20,000 nucleotides of DNA from an uncultured virus (IMG/VR IMGVR_UViG_3300025120_000038) (Duplodnaviria > Heunggongvirae > Uroviricota > Caudoviricetes): the IMG/VR virus record IMGVR_UViG_3300025120_000038. One strand, written 5' to 3'. The notes below the pieces were generated by a model that was not told the origin of the DNA, made no database searches, and saw nothing but the letters and a program-made list of their open reading frames with translations. Numbering within the stretch: the stretch's first letter is position 1; each line of letters opens with the position of its first letter. Below, piece by piece: positions 7,678 through 13,713 of this stretch. The translations under genes were made by a program, and so were the position numbers.

Positions 7678-9000
7678 TTATTTATTCCATTTAATGCGCA
7701 ACTTGTCGGAAGAATTCCCAGATACTACTCTAATCGTATCACCTGAATTTGTAGTTACAGATGAACCATCAGCTCTTGGATCCATATTAATATTTTTAGC
7801 TTTCTTTGCGGATTGTTTTATAGCGTCGGCACGGCCTTGCTCATAAAAGTGATTCGCAATTTTATCTGCATTCTGTGCAGTAAATAAAGCTTTATGATAT
7901 TTATTTAAATCTGTTAAGTTACCTTTGTTATCAGAGTATTGATTTAAAAAATTATTAATATCTGATTGAAACTCTTTTGTTTTTTTAGGATTTTCTATTT
8001 TAAATCTATATTTGTTTTCTCCAACCTTAAAATCAAAACCTTTGAAATCATTGTTAAAAACATCGTTAGTTTTATTTAAAAAATTTTCCTTTAATTTAGT
8101 TTCTTCTTTCGATAATTGCTGTTGATTATTATAATACTCTAAAGCTTTTGCGTATTTTGGATCAATATCTTTTTCTTTTCTTAACTTAAGATCAGTATAA
8201 TATTGGTCTTTTACTTTTTTAAAAGTTTTTTGAGCATTAAATAATTCTTCTTTAAAAGCTAATTGCTTAGCTTTAATATCGGACGGATCGTCCAATTCTT
8301 TATCGTAAGCAAAGTTTTTATCCATTAAAAAAGTAATATCTTCTTTGTCTAGATGAGGTTTAGTAAATTCATAATATTCTTTTAATAAAGTAATATTATC
8401 AATTTTGTCTAAGTCTCTATTAAGTTTTGCATAGTCTTCTACAGTTCCCCCTGTGTCTTCTATAAACTTAATTAATTTACCTACGTCTTCAGGTAGCTCT
8501 TGTGTTTTTGCTTCCTGTAATATTTTTTCAGGTTCCGGTGCGGGCTCGGCACTTTTAGTGCTTGGTTCCACTCCCACCTTGTTAGTTGTATCTTCTTCAT
8601 CATTTACTAATTCTAAAGGAGATTCAGTGGTTTCTTTATTTTCTTCTAAAGTTATTTCTTGCTTAACTTCTTCAGCGTTTTCGGGGGTTTCCCGTACTTC
8701 TGATCCCACGCTTGACAATCCCACTTCGGATCGTTCATCGCGTAACACTTCCTCCTTTGTTTCTGGCTCTTGAACGGCATCTGTTTTTTCTTGTTTAAGT
8801 TCTTCTGTTTTTTGTTCTTTAACAGGGGGTTTGTCTAAATTAACTTTATAGACTCCATCTTCTTGGAGTCCATACTCTTTAGCAACCTCGCCTTTTTCAA
8901 CTGCCTGTTCTAAAACTGCAGCTTCTTTTTCTTGAGGTGATTTAGGAGTTTCAGTATCAACTGATCTTACTTCCACTTTTTCTTCAACTTGGTTTTCCAT
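7678..9000 (-). CDS. Putative capsid scaffolding protein (acidic, disordered N-terminal half)
   Basis: 440 aa located between portal and MCP. E/K-rich N-terminus; conserved-looking F.EDTGGTVEDY.KLN, FKGFDFKVGE and IANHFYEQGRADAIK...KNINM motifs. Confidence 0.75.
   Translation of the reverse strand: MENQVEEKVEVRSVDTETPKSPQEKEAAVLEQAVEKGEVAKEYGLQEDGVYKVNLDKPPVKEQKTEELKQEKTDAVQEPETKEEVLRDERSEVGLSSVGSEVRETPENAEEVKQEITLEENKETTESPLELVNDEEDTTNKVGVEPSTKSAEPAPEPEKILQEAKTQELPEDVGKLIKFIEDTGGTVEDYAKLNRDLDKIDNITLLKEYYEFTKPHLDKEDITFLMDKNFAYDKELDDPSDIKAKQLAFKEELFNAQKTFKKVKDQYYTDLKLRKEKDIDPKYAKALEYYNNQQQLSKEETKLKENFLNKTNDVFNNDFKGFDFKVGENKYRFKIENPKKTKEFQSDINNFLNQYSDNKGNLTDLNKYHKALFTAQNADKIANHFYEQGRADAIKQSAKKAKNINMDPRADGSSVTTNSGDTIRVVSGNSSDKLRIKWNK
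8481..8603 (-). CDS. Candidate nested gene (+1 frame in scaffold): 40-aa basic ArfA-like peptide MMKKIQLTRWEWNQALKVPSPHRNLKKYYRKQKHKSYLKT
   Basis: Hand translation from ATG 8603 to TAG 8481. Coincides with a local GC island (31/60 G+C at 8521-8580). Ends in an RNxKKYxRKxKHK motif recalled from small phage/bacterial ArfA-like peptides. Confidence 0.6.
   Translation of the reverse strand: MMKKIQLTRWEWNQALKVPSPHRNLKKYYRKQKHKSYLKT
8652..8780 (-). CDS. Candidate nested gene (+1 frame in scaffold): 42-aa peptide MPFKSQKQRRKCYAMNDPKWDCQAWDQKYGKPPKTLKKLSKK
   Basis: Hand translation from ATG 8780 to TAA 8652. A-rich leader ACTTAAACAAGAAAAAACAG; GC island (30/60 at 8701-8760). N-terminus resembles the widespread MPFKSxxQRR small phage protein family (recall). 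Confidence 0.65.
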   Translation of the reverse strand: MPFKSQKQRRKCYAMNDPKWDCQAWDQKYGKPPKTLKKLSKK

Positions 9001-9031
9001 AATTTTATATAATATAATAGTTGTTTAATAT

Positions 9032-11476
9032 TTATGATGATTCGAATCTGCCCATGTCAAATCCACCTAAAGTATCATTACCTTTAGATTCAAAATCTTT
9101 TACAGGTTTATCTGTATTAGGTGCTCCACTTATTTTCCCTGAAGGTACTTTAGTTTCTTCCCTGATTTCTTCTCGCTGGAGCATTGATGCGTTATTAGTT
9201 TGTGCTAACTCCATTCTAGATTTTAACTCTAGTTCTTTTAATTGTACATTTAAATTAAATTCGTATTGCATGAGCTCTTTTTTAGCTCTAGTTTCTAATT
9301 CCATCTTCTTTATTTCCATTTCATTTTCCGCTGTGGATAATTGAATTTTAGAAGTTGTTTTTATTTGTTCAGCATCAGCTTTTGCAGATTCCATTGCAAT
9401 TTGTGCTTCTCCTTGTGCCTTAGCTTGGGCTGCACTTGCTGCCTGTGCCTGCGCTTGATCTGATTGTTGTTTAGCTAATCTTCTAAATTTAAGTAATTGA
9501 TTAGCTAGTTTTATATTTTTAACTTCTCTAATATCAATCGCATCTTCTAAAAATATATTTTCTTTTGATAAAGCCATTTGTATATTACTTTCTAATATAG
9601 CTTTTTCATCTGCATCAGGTTCAAGTTCTAAAAATATACCAAAATCATGCAAATTAAGATTTTTAACTTCCTCTAATGACCCTACTGAAAATTGTCCTAG
9701 TGCATCTATCAGAGCTTCTTTAGTTGGATGAAATTCTAACACATCTTTAAACCTTAAAGAAATAGCTTCAGCTAAACTAGTAGTAATAAACATACTACTA
9801 TATAATATATGTCTTGTAGCAACATTACTATTTGCAGCTGCTAATTTTTGCACACCCACTAATGAATTTGGATCAGGATCAGAACCATCTCTAGCTTCAT
9901 TTAGTCCAGTTACATCTCTAATCATTTGAATATATTGATTGTATGCACCAACTAATACTTGTATTTGTTGACCACCACTTCCTGGTAATTCAGTAATTGG
10001 GACTTTACCTGGATTAGGATCTCCTTCTACATTTAGCGATCTACCTATAATAGATCCCGTCTGGAAGTACATATTTAATGCTTCTTGAGGGTTATAATTA
10101 TTTCCGTTACCTAAATCTATTTCAGCTAAGCCATCAGCATCTAAATAAACACCTGAGGGTGTCATTCTTTGTATAGCTTGTTGTAATTTTAAATGTGTTA
10201 ATTGAATTAGATCTGCATAAGGAGTCATTTTAGCAACAAGAGAATTAATACTCCCTTTATATATTCTTGGAGCGCTTGCAATATAATTCATCATTACTTT
10301 ATTTATATTTGCGCTAGGCCTAACCATGTTATCAGCTTTTTTCCACTTTAATAATTCCTGTGTACCTAAAACTAATACTCCCTCATATACAACTTCTCTC
10401 GTTTGTTTTACTTTTTCAAATCTTGTATTTTCATCTACAGGTGGATCAAAAGTGTCGTCTTTTTCAATTGCTTTTTTAGCACCTGTTGATACTTCTTTTA
10501 TTTTATATACGTCATGTTCCCATGTTTTCCAATTAAAATATAACAACGTAACCGTATTGTTTTGGGATAATGAATCATTTAAATAATAATCTTGAGGATT
10601 ATAAGTATTATATACATTCCAATTAGAACCTTTTTTAGTCATAGATTCTATTTGTTCATTTGTTAAATTAGGGAATTCTTTTTTTAACTCGTTAATATTT
10701 ATATTTTTAACTTCTCCAAAATAATAACAATCTGTAAAATTAGGGTCTTCTGTATAGGACCATACTAAGTTAGCAGGATCAACATATTCTACGGTTACAC
10801 CATCAGTATTATTAAACCCATGCTTAGCACACCCAATACCAATTGTAGCTAAGTCGTAATCAATACGCTTTTTAGCGTCGTCGTATTTATTACATTTAAA
10901 AATATTTTCAATTGCTTGTTCTTCCGCTTGTTCTATACCTTGCTTGTAATTAAGTTGCATATATAATTCAAGCTCTTCTGTGTTTGCTGGCAAATCATTA
11001 ACAGCAAAATTTCTAGCTGAAACTCCTAACTTTTTTTCAATATTTAAAAGCAAATCTGCTGTGTTTAAATCTTGCTGAACATCATTAACAAACTTAGTTC
11101 TTTTACCTGTTGATATGTTATCTTGACCAACAGCTTTTATTGTAAAAGTTCTATCTTGCATTCCGTTTACTACAATATCAATAAATTTTGGTATTATAGG
11201 TACAGGTTTCCAGTCTAAATTTAAATAAGATAAATCACCATTAATTGCAAATTCATCTTTATATTTACGAATAGATTGTTCTCCCCTTGCATATAATCTT
11301 AATCGGTGACATTCTTGACGAGAATTATAAAACTTTCCGACACCATTATTGTCTTTGTTAAACCACTCTTGCTCAATTGCTTTAGCTACAGATAATCCAT
11401 ATTCTACTGTGATTTTAATGGAATCTGAAACTGCCTGTGTAGGAAAGGCGTAACTTTGCATTTTATTTTTTGCCAT
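9032..11476 (-). CDS. Portal protein (crAss-like)
   Basis: 814 aa directly downstream of terL. Motifs LRLYARGEQSIRKYKDE..INGDLSYLNLDWKPVPIIPKFIDIVVNG, QLTHLKLQQ, MIRDVTGLNEARDG, LVGVQKLAAANSN; coiled-coil C-terminal barrel. Confidence 0.92.
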   Translation of the reverse strand: MAKNKMQSYAFPTQAVSDSIKITVEYGLSVAKAIEQEWFNKDNNGVGKFYNSRQECHRLRLYARGEQSIRKYKDEFAINGDLSYLNLDWKPVPIIPKFIDIVVNGMQDRTFTIKAVGQDNISTGKRTKFVNDVQQDLNTADLLLNIEKKLGVSARNFAVNDLPANTEELELYMQLNYKQGIEQAEEQAIENIFKCNKYDDAKKRIDYDLATIGIGCAKHGFNNTDGVTVEYVDPANLVWSYTEDPNFTDCYYFGEVKNININELKKEFPNLTNEQIESMTKKGSNWNVYNTYNPQDYYLNDSLSQNNTVTLLYFNWKTWEHDVYKIKEVSTGAKKAIEKDDTFDPPVDENTRFEKVKQTREVVYEGVLVLGTQELLKWKKADNMVRPSANINKVMMNYIASAPRIYKGSINSLVAKMTPYADLIQLTHLKLQQAIQRMTPSGVYLDADGLAEIDLGNGNNYNPQEALNMYFQTGSIIGRSLNVEGDPNPGKVPITELPGSGGQQIQVLVGAYNQYIQMIRDVTGLNEARDGSDPDPNSLVGVQKLAAANSNVATRHILYSSMFITTSLAEAISLRFKDVLEFHPTKEALIDALGQFSVGSLEEVKNLNLHDFGIFLELEPDADEKAILESNIQMALSKENIFLEDAIDIREVKNIKLANQLLKFRRLAKQQSDQAQAQAASAAQAKAQGEAQIAMESAKADAEQIKTTSKIQLSTAENEMEIKKMELETRAKKELMQYEFNLNVQLKELELKSRMELAQTNNASMLQREEIREETKVPSGKISGAPNTDKPVKDFESKGNDTLGGFDMGRFESS

Positions 11477-11478
11477 AT

Positions 11479-13713
11479 TTATTTTATTATCTCACTTCTT
11501 GATCCTTCGTTTCTATATTTTGATAGTTGAAAAGGAACTTTTGTAACTGTTTTTTCCGCTCTAGGACGGTATAAATGTTTTCGACAAGCCATTATAGCTA
11601 GGCCGCTGCTTATTGAAGCATCATGGGCTGTTCTACGAGATATATCAAAACGTGCCCAATCTTCAAGGGTTCTTTGGAAAAACATGTTTCCATTGTTTTC
11701 ACCAATTTTACCCACATATTCTTCAATATAAGATTCAATAGCAGAGGCATGGGCTTGCTTAATGTCTTCTGAAGAGTTAGGTATACCTCCTAATTCTAAT
11801 TCTGTTTTAGATAAGTTACCAACTAATTTATCAGGTCTATTCATAGAATAACCTCTATACCCTCTTCTTTTAAAATGATATAGTAATCTTGGTTTGTTAT
11901 TTTCCGCTAATAAAGGCATTCCATAAAATATACAAGCCATTAATACATCTTCAAAAAATATTTCAGCTGTTTGTGGCCTTGCTATATATTCTAAAAAAAA
12001 CTTACTATTTGGTACATCACTAACCATTGAAAATGTAGTTAACCCGTGTAAAGAACCATTTGATCCTCTACCACCTACTGTACCTGATATATCGTAAGGA
12101 TCACAGCCAAATGCACCCAACCCGTTATTAGCCGGATATTTTAATGTGTTTTTTATAACAATACTATTTTGCATAAGTGTTGGAGGAATCCACGATATTC
12201 TAAATCTACCATTAGCATTAGGTGTCCATATAACTTTTGTATCTTTAATGCCGTTTGCCCATCCAAAAGAGCCTTTTGATATATGCCCTTTCATTACCAT
12301 TTCTTCATTAAAATCTATTTGCTCATAAATTTTAGTTAAGTTAAATAATGAATTTAAAGTTTCATCTCTGAAAGCGTGTTTTTCAGATCTTGGAAATTGT
12401 CTATAATATTCATTTAAAGCATCAGAATCTTTTTTTAATCCTTCAACTTCATTTTCCCAGTGTTCAATGACCCCCGTATAGATGAGTTCACCATCAATTC
12501 CCTCAGCCGGTTTTGGTGGTGTATCGAATACAGGGTACCCATACTTATCGATAAATCCTTCGAAGCCCCATTCCATAGGAAGGAACAAAGCATATAATCC
12601 ACTTGTAGTCTGGCCATTGCGATTTCTATTTTCGACATTTGAATTATTATATAATTTTTTAAAGTTATCTCCTCCTTTTGCTAATGCATTAGAAGTAGAT
12701 CCCATCATACATTTGCCTACTATTTTTGAACCGAGCCTGAGACACGTTTTTGTGACCCTCCAGTTGTTGAGGATGTTGTCGGGCCTTTCCCATTTGCCCG
12801 ATTCATCATGGACGAGGAGTTGTAACTTTTCCCCATCATATGAATTGTCCCCGGTATTCTTCCAGTCGATTGTTGTATCGAGCCCCTTTGCCATTCCTTC
12901 ATCTTCCGTTTGTGTTTCTCGAATGGAATTTCTGGTAAGTCTTCTTGAGGGTATCTTATAGGAGAGCTCGGTTTTGGGGCGCTCCATACCGTCTTGAATT
13001 GGCTTGAAGAAGAATGGGTAGTTGATGGAGATTGGTACCACCTTGTCTGTAAACATCTTCTTCGCATCTGCTCCAGTCTTTGATAATATCCCAAACCTAG
13101 AGTCTTTTGAAGTTGTAGCCTGGTTGACGCACTCGGATGATGCCATAAAACTAAATCCAGACCTCCTGTTTTTAAGGTAGCACATTCCATAAGACCTGGA
13201 ATCTGCCTTGCAAGCCTCCCAGAAGTAGTAAAATATTCTATTTGCTTGTCTAAAGTCGGGTGACCCCACGTCGATCTTAGTCCAGTTGAGGTATATATAG
13301 TGTGATCCTGTAATGTAACACGGGGTACCGTTGCACATGAACCAGTAACCATCATTACGATAATTAAATTCATCGTCAATGTATTGGTAATATTCCTCTT
13401 TATTTTTTTCTGGATGCTTAGTGAAATCATATATGCTTTTTATTTTGTTTAGTGAATTAGGCTTTAATCTTTTTTTAAAATATTGATTTTCTTTTTTAAG
13501 GTCTTGACCTTCAATTATTTGAGGAATTTTAGGTAAACCTACCTTGAGACCTTGAATTTCATATATTTCTCCTAATGTACCATCTTTACTTATAATAACA
13601 CAATCTAATTCTTTATTGTAACCATATTTAAATTTTTTATGCTTATTAAAGTTTTTAACTGATCTATCATTAAGATGCTCATCGTATATATGATATAAAT
13701 TTTGTTTATACAT
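11479..13713 (-). CDS. terL: Terminase large subunit
   Basis: 744 aa. Walker A-like YLKNRRSGFS, Walker B LLVHDESGKW, coupling motif MGSTSN, RNase H-like nuclease motifs GCDPYD, LAENN, HDASISSG. Confidence 0.95.
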   Translation of the reverse strand: MYKQNLYHIYDEHLNDRSVKNFNKHKKFKYGYNKELDCVIISKDGTLGEIYEIQGLKVGLPKIPQIIEGQDLKKENQYFKKRLKPNSLNKIKSIYDFTKHPEKNKEEYYQYIDDEFNYRNDGYWFMCNGTPCYITGSHYIYLNWTKIDVGSPDFRQANRIFYYFWEACKADSRSYGMCYLKNRRSGFSFMASSECVNQATTSKDSRFGILSKTGADAKKMFTDKVVPISINYPFFFKPIQDGMERPKTELSYKIPSRRLTRNSIRETQTEDEGMAKGLDTTIDWKNTGDNSYDGEKLQLLVHDESGKWERPDNILNNWRVTKTCLRLGSKIVGKCMMGSTSNALAKGGDNFKKLYNNSNVENRNRNGQTTSGLYALFLPMEWGFEGFIDKYGYPVFDTPPKPAEGIDGELIYTGVIEHWENEVEGLKKDSDALNEYYRQFPRSEKHAFRDETLNSLFNLTKIYEQIDFNEEMVMKGHISKGSFGWANGIKDTKVIWTPNANGRFRISWIPPTLMQNSIVIKNTLKYPANNGLGAFGCDPYDISGTVGGRGSNGSLHGLTTFSMVSDVPNSKFFLEYIARPQTAEIFFEDVLMACIFYGMPLLAENNKPRLLYHFKRRGYRGYSMNRPDKLVGNLSKTELELGGIPNSSEDIKQAHASAIESYIEEYVGKIGENNGNMFFQRTLEDWARFDISRRTAHDASISSGLAIMACRKHLYRPRAEKTVTKVPFQLSKYRNEGSRSEIIK
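12435..12638 (-). CDS. Candidate nested ORF in +1 frame of terL (67 aa), function unknown
   Basis: ORF track entry in the same +1 frame as 12720..13430. Overlaps a GC island (30/60 at 12481-12540 vs 10/60 at 12301-12360). Confidence 0.3.
   Translation of the reverse strand: MSKIEIAMARLQVDYMLCSFLWNGASKDLSISMGTLYSIHHQNRLRELMVNSSIRGSLNTGKMKLKD
12720..13430 (-). CDS. Candidate nested ORF in +1 frame of terL (236 aa) with possible lipoprotein signal peptide
   Basis: 236 stop-free codons in an AT-rich genome. terL uses CTC/GTC/ATC/GGC-type codons here (29/60 G+C at 12781-12840 vs 10/60 at 13441-13500). N-terminus KKIKR...LTMNLIIVMMVTGS-C, with the Cys codon at 13337-13335. Confidence 0.5.
   Translation of the reverse strand: MISLSIQKKIKRNITNTLTMNLIIVMMVTGSCATVPRVTLQDHTIYTSTGLRSTWGHPTLDKQIEYFTTSGRLARQIPGLMECATLKTGGLDLVLWHHPSASTRLQLQKTLGLGYYQRLEQMRRRCLQTRWYQSPSTTHSSSSQFKTVWSAPKPSSPIRYPQEDLPEIPFEKHKRKMKEWQRGSIQQSTGRIPGTIHMMGKSYNSSSMMNRANGKGPTTSSTTGGSQKRVSGSVQK

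Follow-up and report, generated by a model that had tools for sequence, protein, structure and literature searches.

Candidate genes nested in the +1 frame of the terminase and scaffold-like genes of an uncultured tailed phage

The stretch of 20,000 nucleotides analysed here (the window) belongs to an uncultured tailed virus, IMG/VR record IMGVR_UViG_3300025120_000038. On its minus strand there are four ATG-started open reading frames (ORFs), named A to D, and each of them lies in the +1 frame of a longer host gene. ORFs A and B are present within the gene of the terminase large subunit (terL), and C and D within a scaffold-like gene (Table 1). Taken jointly, the four ORFs are probably real genes, A and C being the strongest and D and B a little weaker. 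The observations in their support are the open frames, the selection specific to stops, the codon-position patterns, the free homologues and the start context of C and A; from these we infer their translation, the direction of capture and all the functions. It is proposed that A to D would be translated as same-strand genes via internal initiation on the late head-module mRNA. The frame is open beyond chance and across relatives (for D, through the relatives only), and selection on the alternative-frame protein was found for B, C and D; for A, it was found only in the signal, the Cys and the composition.

Table 1. Nested ORFs and their host genes in the window
Feature	Positions	Strand	Basis
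ORF A, +1 in terL, 236 aa, predicted lipoprotein	12720..13430	-	open core in relatives; GC3-matched P
Signal peptide and lipobox-like Cys32 of A	13335..13430	-	terL residue/codon fixation in A1 lineages
ORF B, +1 in terL, 67 aa, two predicted helices	12435..12638	-	open frame and low NN/NS
ORF C, +1 in scaffold-like gene, 42 aa, basic MPFKS-family peptide	8652..8780	-	motif in relatives, codon-position pattern
A-rich initiation region of C, from scaffold Lys/Gln/Glu/Thr codons	8781..8800	-	start-context comparison
ORF D, +1 in scaffold-like gene, 40 aa, basic peptide	8481..8603	-	relatives, free homologues
terL, terminase large subunit, 744 aa, host of A and B	11479..13713	-	phrog_6681, E 1e-169
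Scaffold-like gene, 440 aa, host of C and D	7678..9000	-	position and make-up
Portal, control gene without nested ORF	9032..11476	-	phrog_6547; +1 stops not depleted in 68 relatives

GC islands, open frames and the loss of stops

A sequence-only reading of the window had pointed out the four ORFs, and they do exist at the places it gave. It had also noticed that islands of high GC content coincide with them. To score this coincidence, the control that this reading had named as able to refute it was run: synonymous codons were permuted within each gene (3000 shuffles per gene) and the inside-outside difference in the GC content of third codon positions (GC3) was measured; the coincidence exceeds shuffling in both terL (P=0.0003) and the scaffold-like gene (P=0.0023). 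GC3 inside A, B, C and D is 0.49, 0.35, 0.37 and 0.29, against expected values of 0.19, 0.18, 0.13 and 0.13, that is, about two to three times higher. The four top 30-codon GC3 segments of terL all fall within A (z 5.6-9.0), and the two top ones of the scaffold-like gene fall in C and D (z 5.1 and 4.1). The portal gene, in which that reading had seen no evident islands of this kind, indeed peaks at only z 2.5. The island of A begins around 26 codons past its ATG, behind a T-rich signal, and that of B is weak (12 of 48 non-xTx codons, 7.8 expected, p=0.08). There are also GC3 peaks without a conserved +1 ORF, in the capsid gene (7657-7567, z 4.0) and the groES-like gene (14124-14034, z 3.6), and raw GC is raised in Gly/Ala-rich genes as well.

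The islands appear to be a by-product of the nested frames, since each third codon position falls in the middle of a +1 codon, and the avoidance of stops or hydrophobic residues shifts T to C or G. The opposite idea, that a higher GC3 itself lengthens +1 ORFs, was rejected: matching GC3 barely alters the probability of an open frame, and +1 stops arise from xTA or xTG codons only. Misassembly is also an unlikely cause, as most of the stretch is covered, at about 99% identity, by contigs of two other studies, one of them covering 7844-9899 with both scaffold islands, though no single contig of those studies spans the whole.

From this genome alone, only A exceeds chance (P of an open frame 2e-9, or 4e-8 with GC3 matched). 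For B, P is 4.5e-3 at its own place and 0.07 for an ORF of at least 67 aa anywhere in terL. For C and D, it is 0.019 and 0.35, and an ORF of at least 40 aa in the scaffold-like gene has P=0.37. In a single genome, B, C and D stand out marginally or not at all, and their case rests on relatives. These were the best 80 of 600 terL loci along with 78 scaffold loci, from which eight head-module genes were extracted; partial copies and six named phages were removed, and representatives below 88% nucleotide identity were kept (15-68 per gene).

Among the eight genes, a clear depletion of +1 stops is limited to A, B and the region of C. At terL codons 121-255, there are 8-25 stops observed against 46-110 expected; at codons 346-390 (B), 1 against 23 and 1 against 31; and in the C region of the scaffold, 17 against 77. 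In the portal, the groES-like and three downstream genes, no comparable fall was seen among the representatives, and the capsid gene has a single mild dip (21 against 46 expected). Stops of the +2 frame are without a matching depletion. Within A and B, xTA codons before purines are absent (0 of 384 in A and 0 of 108 in B; outside, 61% and 60%), which follows from choosing open frames. The actual test is the retention of xTA before pyrimidines, and this stays near the outside rates (A, 262 of 400; B, 123 of 231); selection thus acts against stops and not against codons. The earlier idea of a systematic same-strand +1 coding layer is therefore borne out, with selection added to it, as the loss of stops is specific to frame and place.

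It could also be imagined that an RNA or DNA element, or the avoidance of certain codons, lies behind the islands and the conservation in place of a protein. The synonymous conservation of B (four-fold difference p 0.20 vs 0.50) could be a signal of this kind; however, the consensus fold of its region is weak (-5.9 kcal/mol, with two-sided change in 1 of 20 pairs), and the xTA codons retained before pyrimidines and the +2 stops, which show no matching depletion, also speak against this reading. Such an origin is scarcely credible.

ORFs A and B within the terminase gene

ORF A has a basic N-terminus, a hydrophobic stretch, a GSC at residues 30-32 and a basic hydrophilic tail (K+R 33, D+E 11). 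Judged by these sequence features and without a dedicated predictor, it follows the bacterial lipoprotein pattern of a basic n-region, a hydrophobic h-region and a conserved Cys, while its signal of 31 aa is long for a lipoprotein. The core of A is open in 42 of the 57 representatives and absent in the other 15. The share of T at third positions, which yields hydrophobic +1 residues, drops from 0.75 in the signal to 0.26 in the body where A is present, compared with 0.45 and 0.49 in the A-minus lineages. This switch from signal to body explains both the GC island of A and its late start.

Residues 126-127 of terL, which yield the +1 Cys of A, are fixed as M-C in 29 of 29 lineages of the A1 type, and are variable in the 15 A-minus lineages and in the 11 lineages of the A2 type, in which the hydrophobic stretch and the Cys lie about 14 codons downstream of those of A1. 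Similarly, TTC is used at terL codon 125 in 27 of 29 A1 lineages against 1 of 15 A-minus ones. Since A1 was defined by the motif G[SL]C, the count of Cys is partly circular; this does not touch the codon choices or the variability elsewhere. Further, the body of A is more hydrophilic than synonymous resampling would give (Kyte-Doolittle (KD) hydropathy -0.50 vs 0.36, median z -4.1, 40 lineages). No family match was found for A, its best value in the Atlas being 0.78. Thus, A looks like a lipoprotein overprinted de novo on terL, in which the signal, the Cys, the open frame and the hydrophilicity would be selected, with the tail drifting; the product would be exported and anchored through its Cys. 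In one lineage (L116), nested among full-length carriers, A is cut near terL codon 230, which is likely a recent truncation.

As to its role, a late envelope-anchored polycation aiding lysis can be put forward tentatively; a part in superinfection exclusion ranks next and is unlikely. A related proposal is that A is the missing spanin of this phage group. The u-spanins have a C-terminal transmembrane segment, and the o-spanins are short lipoproteins whose i-spanin is encoded next to or around them. In favour of the proposal, holins and an endolysin are annotated in the window but no spanin is, a crude screen of the main genes of two near-complete relatives found no lipobox, and the N-terminus of A is lipoprotein-like. 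In the embedded spanin pair 18.5/18.7 of T7, just as for A, a lipoprotein gene is nested out of frame in a late gene, and Rz/Rz1 of lambda is another embedded pair. However, A is not a u-spanin, because a C-terminal membrane segment is absent (best 19-mer KD at most 1.5 in the 41 relatives listed). An o-spanin would call for a partner; none was found in the crude N-terminus screen, which covered the two relatives only, and the host gene of A is terL and not an i-spanin. A is also much longer than embedded spanins, with a weakly constrained tail of 145-237 aa, and is lacking in 15 of 57 lineages. A spanin is, on balance, rather unlikely, and the overprinted lipoprotein is preferred.

ORF B is open in 55 of 58 representatives. 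In A-plus lineages, its NN/NS of 0.40 and pSN of 0.27 (20 pairs) are the lowest among all the segments compared, the controls having NN/NS of 0.49-1.17 (terL), 0.51-0.74 (portal) and 0.51-0.86 (capsid). This shows that B is under purifying selection, mainly in the A-carrying lineages. B may act as a partner of A, given that strong constraint on B is confined to lineages with A; such a coupling is possible and comes from few pairs. The structure model is of low confidence (pLDDT 65, pTM 0.33). No free homologue of B was found, 24 of 44 database matches examined being frameshift-like chimeras of terL or +1 calls at the same place. By the model, B looks like a two-helix protein which, like A, would have been born de novo on terL.

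ORFs C and D, the MPFKS family and internal starts

Both the scaffold ORFs encode strongly basic peptides (C with K+R 13 and D+E 3, D with K+R 12 and D+E 1), and C is modelled as helix-turn-helix-like (pLDDT 71). The C motif is present in 106 of 120 aligned scaffolds and the D motif in 16. Counted by its own codon positions, C differs at 62, 74 and 154 of 726 sites, the third position being the highest, and D, in a set selected by motif, at 75, 60 and 198; the set used for C depended less on the motif. The amino-acid difference of C is 0.15 in its own frame and 0.25 in the host frame (scaffold-found pairs). A 'conserved' motif of the scaffold would hence be the shadow of another gene. Several subtypes of C substitute for each other at one site, and some scaffolds have D but no C, near the usual place of C (observations from L152, L317, L320 and L321).

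What the sequence-only reading had overlooked is that free-standing genes exist in the families of C and D. Among the best 80 C loci, 10 are free-standing and 70 nested, of which 65 are in scaffolds and 4 in long non-scaffold genes, with 1 truncated; a pattern scan gave 80 further copies, every one of them nested, including one in a long gene. D has 328 database homologues, and its best 80 loci comprise 67 nested and 13 free-standing ones. The free homologues of both have stops in the host-equivalent frame, which tells which frame matters. A single-sequence search for C gave nothing, unlike a profile search, which gave 3433 family representatives in which the module is nearly always N-terminal. 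It heads proteins of 39-767 aa, including long low-complexity ones, and may serve as an N-terminal targeting tag. Some of these long proteins (P0005, P0012, P0014, P0048, P0129 and others) have no Pfam match.

Free C is mostly located in head modules, where its neighbours are portal, head-assembly or GroES genes along with further very small basic genes. Phage 023Pt_psg01 (URG13095.1) and Streptomyces phage FlowerPower (gp48) have it as an annotated gene; the GenBank entries of cyanophages P-RSP2 and S-CBS2 each contain an MPFKS-type ORF with no annotation. Of these carriers, FlowerPower, P-RSP2 and S-CBS2 are cultured phages. The annotated genes share the N-terminal motif, size and basic charge of C; they are ordinary genes with no assigned function, whereas C is wholly nested in +1. 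Of 34 MPFKS members, 10 were matched by phrog_1375. In the Atlas, C falls in unnamed clusters only (0.93), with DUF3008 as a weak lead (0.87). A Foldseek comparison of the C model with the PDB gave no match, nor did D match anything among GenBank phages. The nested ORFs thereby offer a testable handle on this family, which comprises thousands of small basic phage proteins without a known role.

These data are consistent with a capture, in which C and D would have entered from widespread families of small basic phage peptides into the +1 frame of the scaffold N-terminus. The latter is acidic and variable (D+E 50, K+R 23 in residues 1-175). As the Lys codons of +1 would read Glu, Lys or Gln in frame 0, a basic peptide and an acidic spacer could share the DNA cheaply. 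The C cassette is also seen in +1 within very long non-scaffold genes (L185, L198, L203, L204, L395), and one such C-bearing gene is an open frame of 3984 aa (G001) on a contig that has a scaffold gene as well; this suggests that C moves between host genes.

A comparison with phiX174 gives an idea of what C and D might do. There, E lies in +1 inside the head-morphogenesis gene D, as the nested ORFs here lie in head genes, and D is adjoined by J, a basic 38-aa 'DNA condensation, core protein', like C and D in size and charge. The phiX174 D protein is an external scaffold, and E acts through an N-terminal membrane segment. No sequence likeness of C and D to phiX174 E and J is visible. Here, moreover, the basic peptides are themselves nested in the scaffold-like gene, the phage is a tailed one with dsDNA, and free homologues exist. 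By analogy with J, C and D, which are small, strongly basic and head-module encoded (free D genes excepted), would be produced with the scaffold and placed in the head. From their charge, size and neighbourhood, DNA-binding core peptides are a fair guess, yet somewhat short of probable.

In Flavobacterium johnsoniae, adenines at -3, -6, -12 and -13 are reported start determinants (PMC6847099). All four are present at 61% of the 49 C starts; among same-phase scaffold sites the share is 4.5%, and among control +1 ATGs it is 1%. The start of A is in the 98th percentile of the background. For C, the Glu/Lys codons of the scaffold would supply the adenines favoured by Bacteroidota ribosomes that work without a Shine-Dalgarno sequence. 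The proposal that A-rich runs provide internal starts thus held for C and A, while for D (0 of 40 starts with all four adenines) and for B, whose ATGs in this window score poorly, it did not. With a position-weight score trained on true starts, C was not singled out (71st percentile), and neither D nor the B starts of the window were favoured.

Several results weigh against the four ORFs being genes of the proposed kind. The relatives share ancestry, and so the counts across them are not independent events. RNA runs contained small shares of the stretch, in short contigs of low depth that give no evidence of transcription. None of A to D has a Pfam, PHROG-function or PDB match, the structure search having been made with the C model only. 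The tail of A has NN/NS of 0.62-0.89, like the controls, with no purifying selection seen at the amino-acid level. The start of B is ambiguous (codon 356, 359 or 366), and its frame, although mostly open in A-minus lineages as well, shows no constraint there (pSN 0.50, NN/NS 0.94, 5 pairs). D is non-significant in this genome, patchy and poor in its starts. Free D is located outside head modules, near DNA ligase and lysozyme-like genes, and the FlowerPower copy of C lies between a peptidase and a holin.

Some of these points would suit a narrower account, in which A and C are the only genes, B is an open frame forced by terL and D is a decaying passenger. The B region also has few opportunities for stops (23-31 expected per 30 codons). 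Nevertheless, a single stop is found there, B has the lowest NN/NS and pSN in the A-plus lineages, and D, which has free homologues, changes mostly at its own third positions. This account is quite unlikely, and all four ORFs are retained as probable genes.

Precedents, relatives and further +1 frames

On the minus strand of the window, endolysin and holin genes are present, along with a GroES-like gene, terL, the portal, the scaffold-like gene and virion genes. The scaffold-like gene has no family match, and the label 'scaffold' comes from its position and composition; the gene at the same position in elemoF and phi38:1 is annotated as 'structural protein'. The label 'crAss-like' given in the sequence-only reading proved loose. 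By terL identity, the closest named cultured relatives are Elemovirus (45%), followed by Pachyviridae and Pervagoviridae (37%). The 87 terL matches are phages of Flavobacterium, Cellulophaga, Tenacibaculum and Maribacter together with one unclassified record, and the relative records opened were of these three taxa or unclassified, so that the nearest terL relatives do not fall in the order Crassvirales. On this sequence basis, the phage is Elemovirus/Pachyviridae-like and not a member of Crassvirales. Related sequence is common in marine metagenomes. The terL tree leaves deep forks open and gives no order of gain or loss.

The three named groups, with terL 31-45% identical, share the gene order of the window from terL through the portal and scaffold-like genes to the virion genes, in most cases with a GroES-like gene ahead of terL. 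In the six named cultured relatives that were checked, A, B and C are absent at these places. The terL of phi38:1 has, at codon 466, a Met-started +1 stretch of 87 codons. A parallel to A and B is known in T7, where 19.2 and 19.3, both annotated 'hypothetical', are two same-strand +1 ORFs wholly inside gene 19 (terL). They are of 85 and 57 aa and, by eye and without alignment, have neither a signal-plus-Cys N-terminus nor any likeness to A or B; as the terminase family of T7 differs, their origin is presumably independent. Nested +1 genes thus have precedents; for a layer of this scale, and for captured free genes, no description seems to exist in the open-access literature searched. No account of this nested-gene system was found there, most subscription journals lying outside the search.

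The nested layer had been placed in the head operon. It is present there, but it is not confined to it, as seen in two near-complete relatives with more long +1 ORFs at matching places in the primase-helicase, ThyA and ribonucleotide reductase (RNR) genes. For these, relatives only were used (the best 80 of 88 matches, 76 loci, 26-35 representatives per gene), and +1 stops are depleted at the primase-helicase, ThyA and RNR sites across the representatives. The primase-helicase gene has two +1 ORFs in tandem, of 138-142 aa and about 57 aa (open in 18 and 17 of 25), and the ThyA-like gene likewise has two, of about 99 and 90 aa (open in 25 and 11 of 29). RNR alpha has one of 120 aa (open in 24 of 27), and the +1 frames of RNR beta are open in 18 and 28 of 34, with variable starts. 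For 6 of the 7 frames, open lineages have a higher GC3 than closed ones. Many of these ORFs are hydrophobic, and none of the A-rich start context is seen in them; selection on the protein is less evident, and no named family was found for them.

Could the ribosome reach these frames by +1 frameshifting or slippage, so that fusions to the host protein would be made and not separate proteins? Nearly all the nested frames are +1, the prfB gene of Bacteroidia reportedly uses a programmed +1 shift, and B, D and the replication-gene ORFs are without A-rich starts. On the other side, a +1 stop stands 0-4 codons ahead of the ATG in A, D and the primase ORF, A opens with a signal peptide, and the first Met of C is also that of its free homologues. 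Frameshifting is thus a very improbable source, and internal initiation is preferred.

Extended to the whole genome, these frames would form a second +1 proteome of about ten unannotated proteins per genome. Some of them would be captured and mobile between host genes, and others would be de novo tandem +1 mini-operons, as in the primase-helicase and ThyA genes; the MPFKS module would serve phages from cyanophages to those of Streptomyces as a general tag for head targeting or DNA condensation. This larger picture is attractive but is held with some reserve, as falling a little below the probable. Gene callers drop nested ORFs, and thus the proteins of this phage group would be undercounted, perhaps by ten genes per genome; standard annotation would miss a hidden protein layer. 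One clade would then show a whole series of overlapping genes: capture, de novo birth, the shift of a signal peptide (A1/A2), truncation and loss.

The RNR alpha gene has a further feature in the +2 frame. At its codon 290, one relative (G006) carries a +2 ORF of 80 aa with a rise in GC3 (z 7.5), and across relatives, +2 stops are about halved near codons 301-360.

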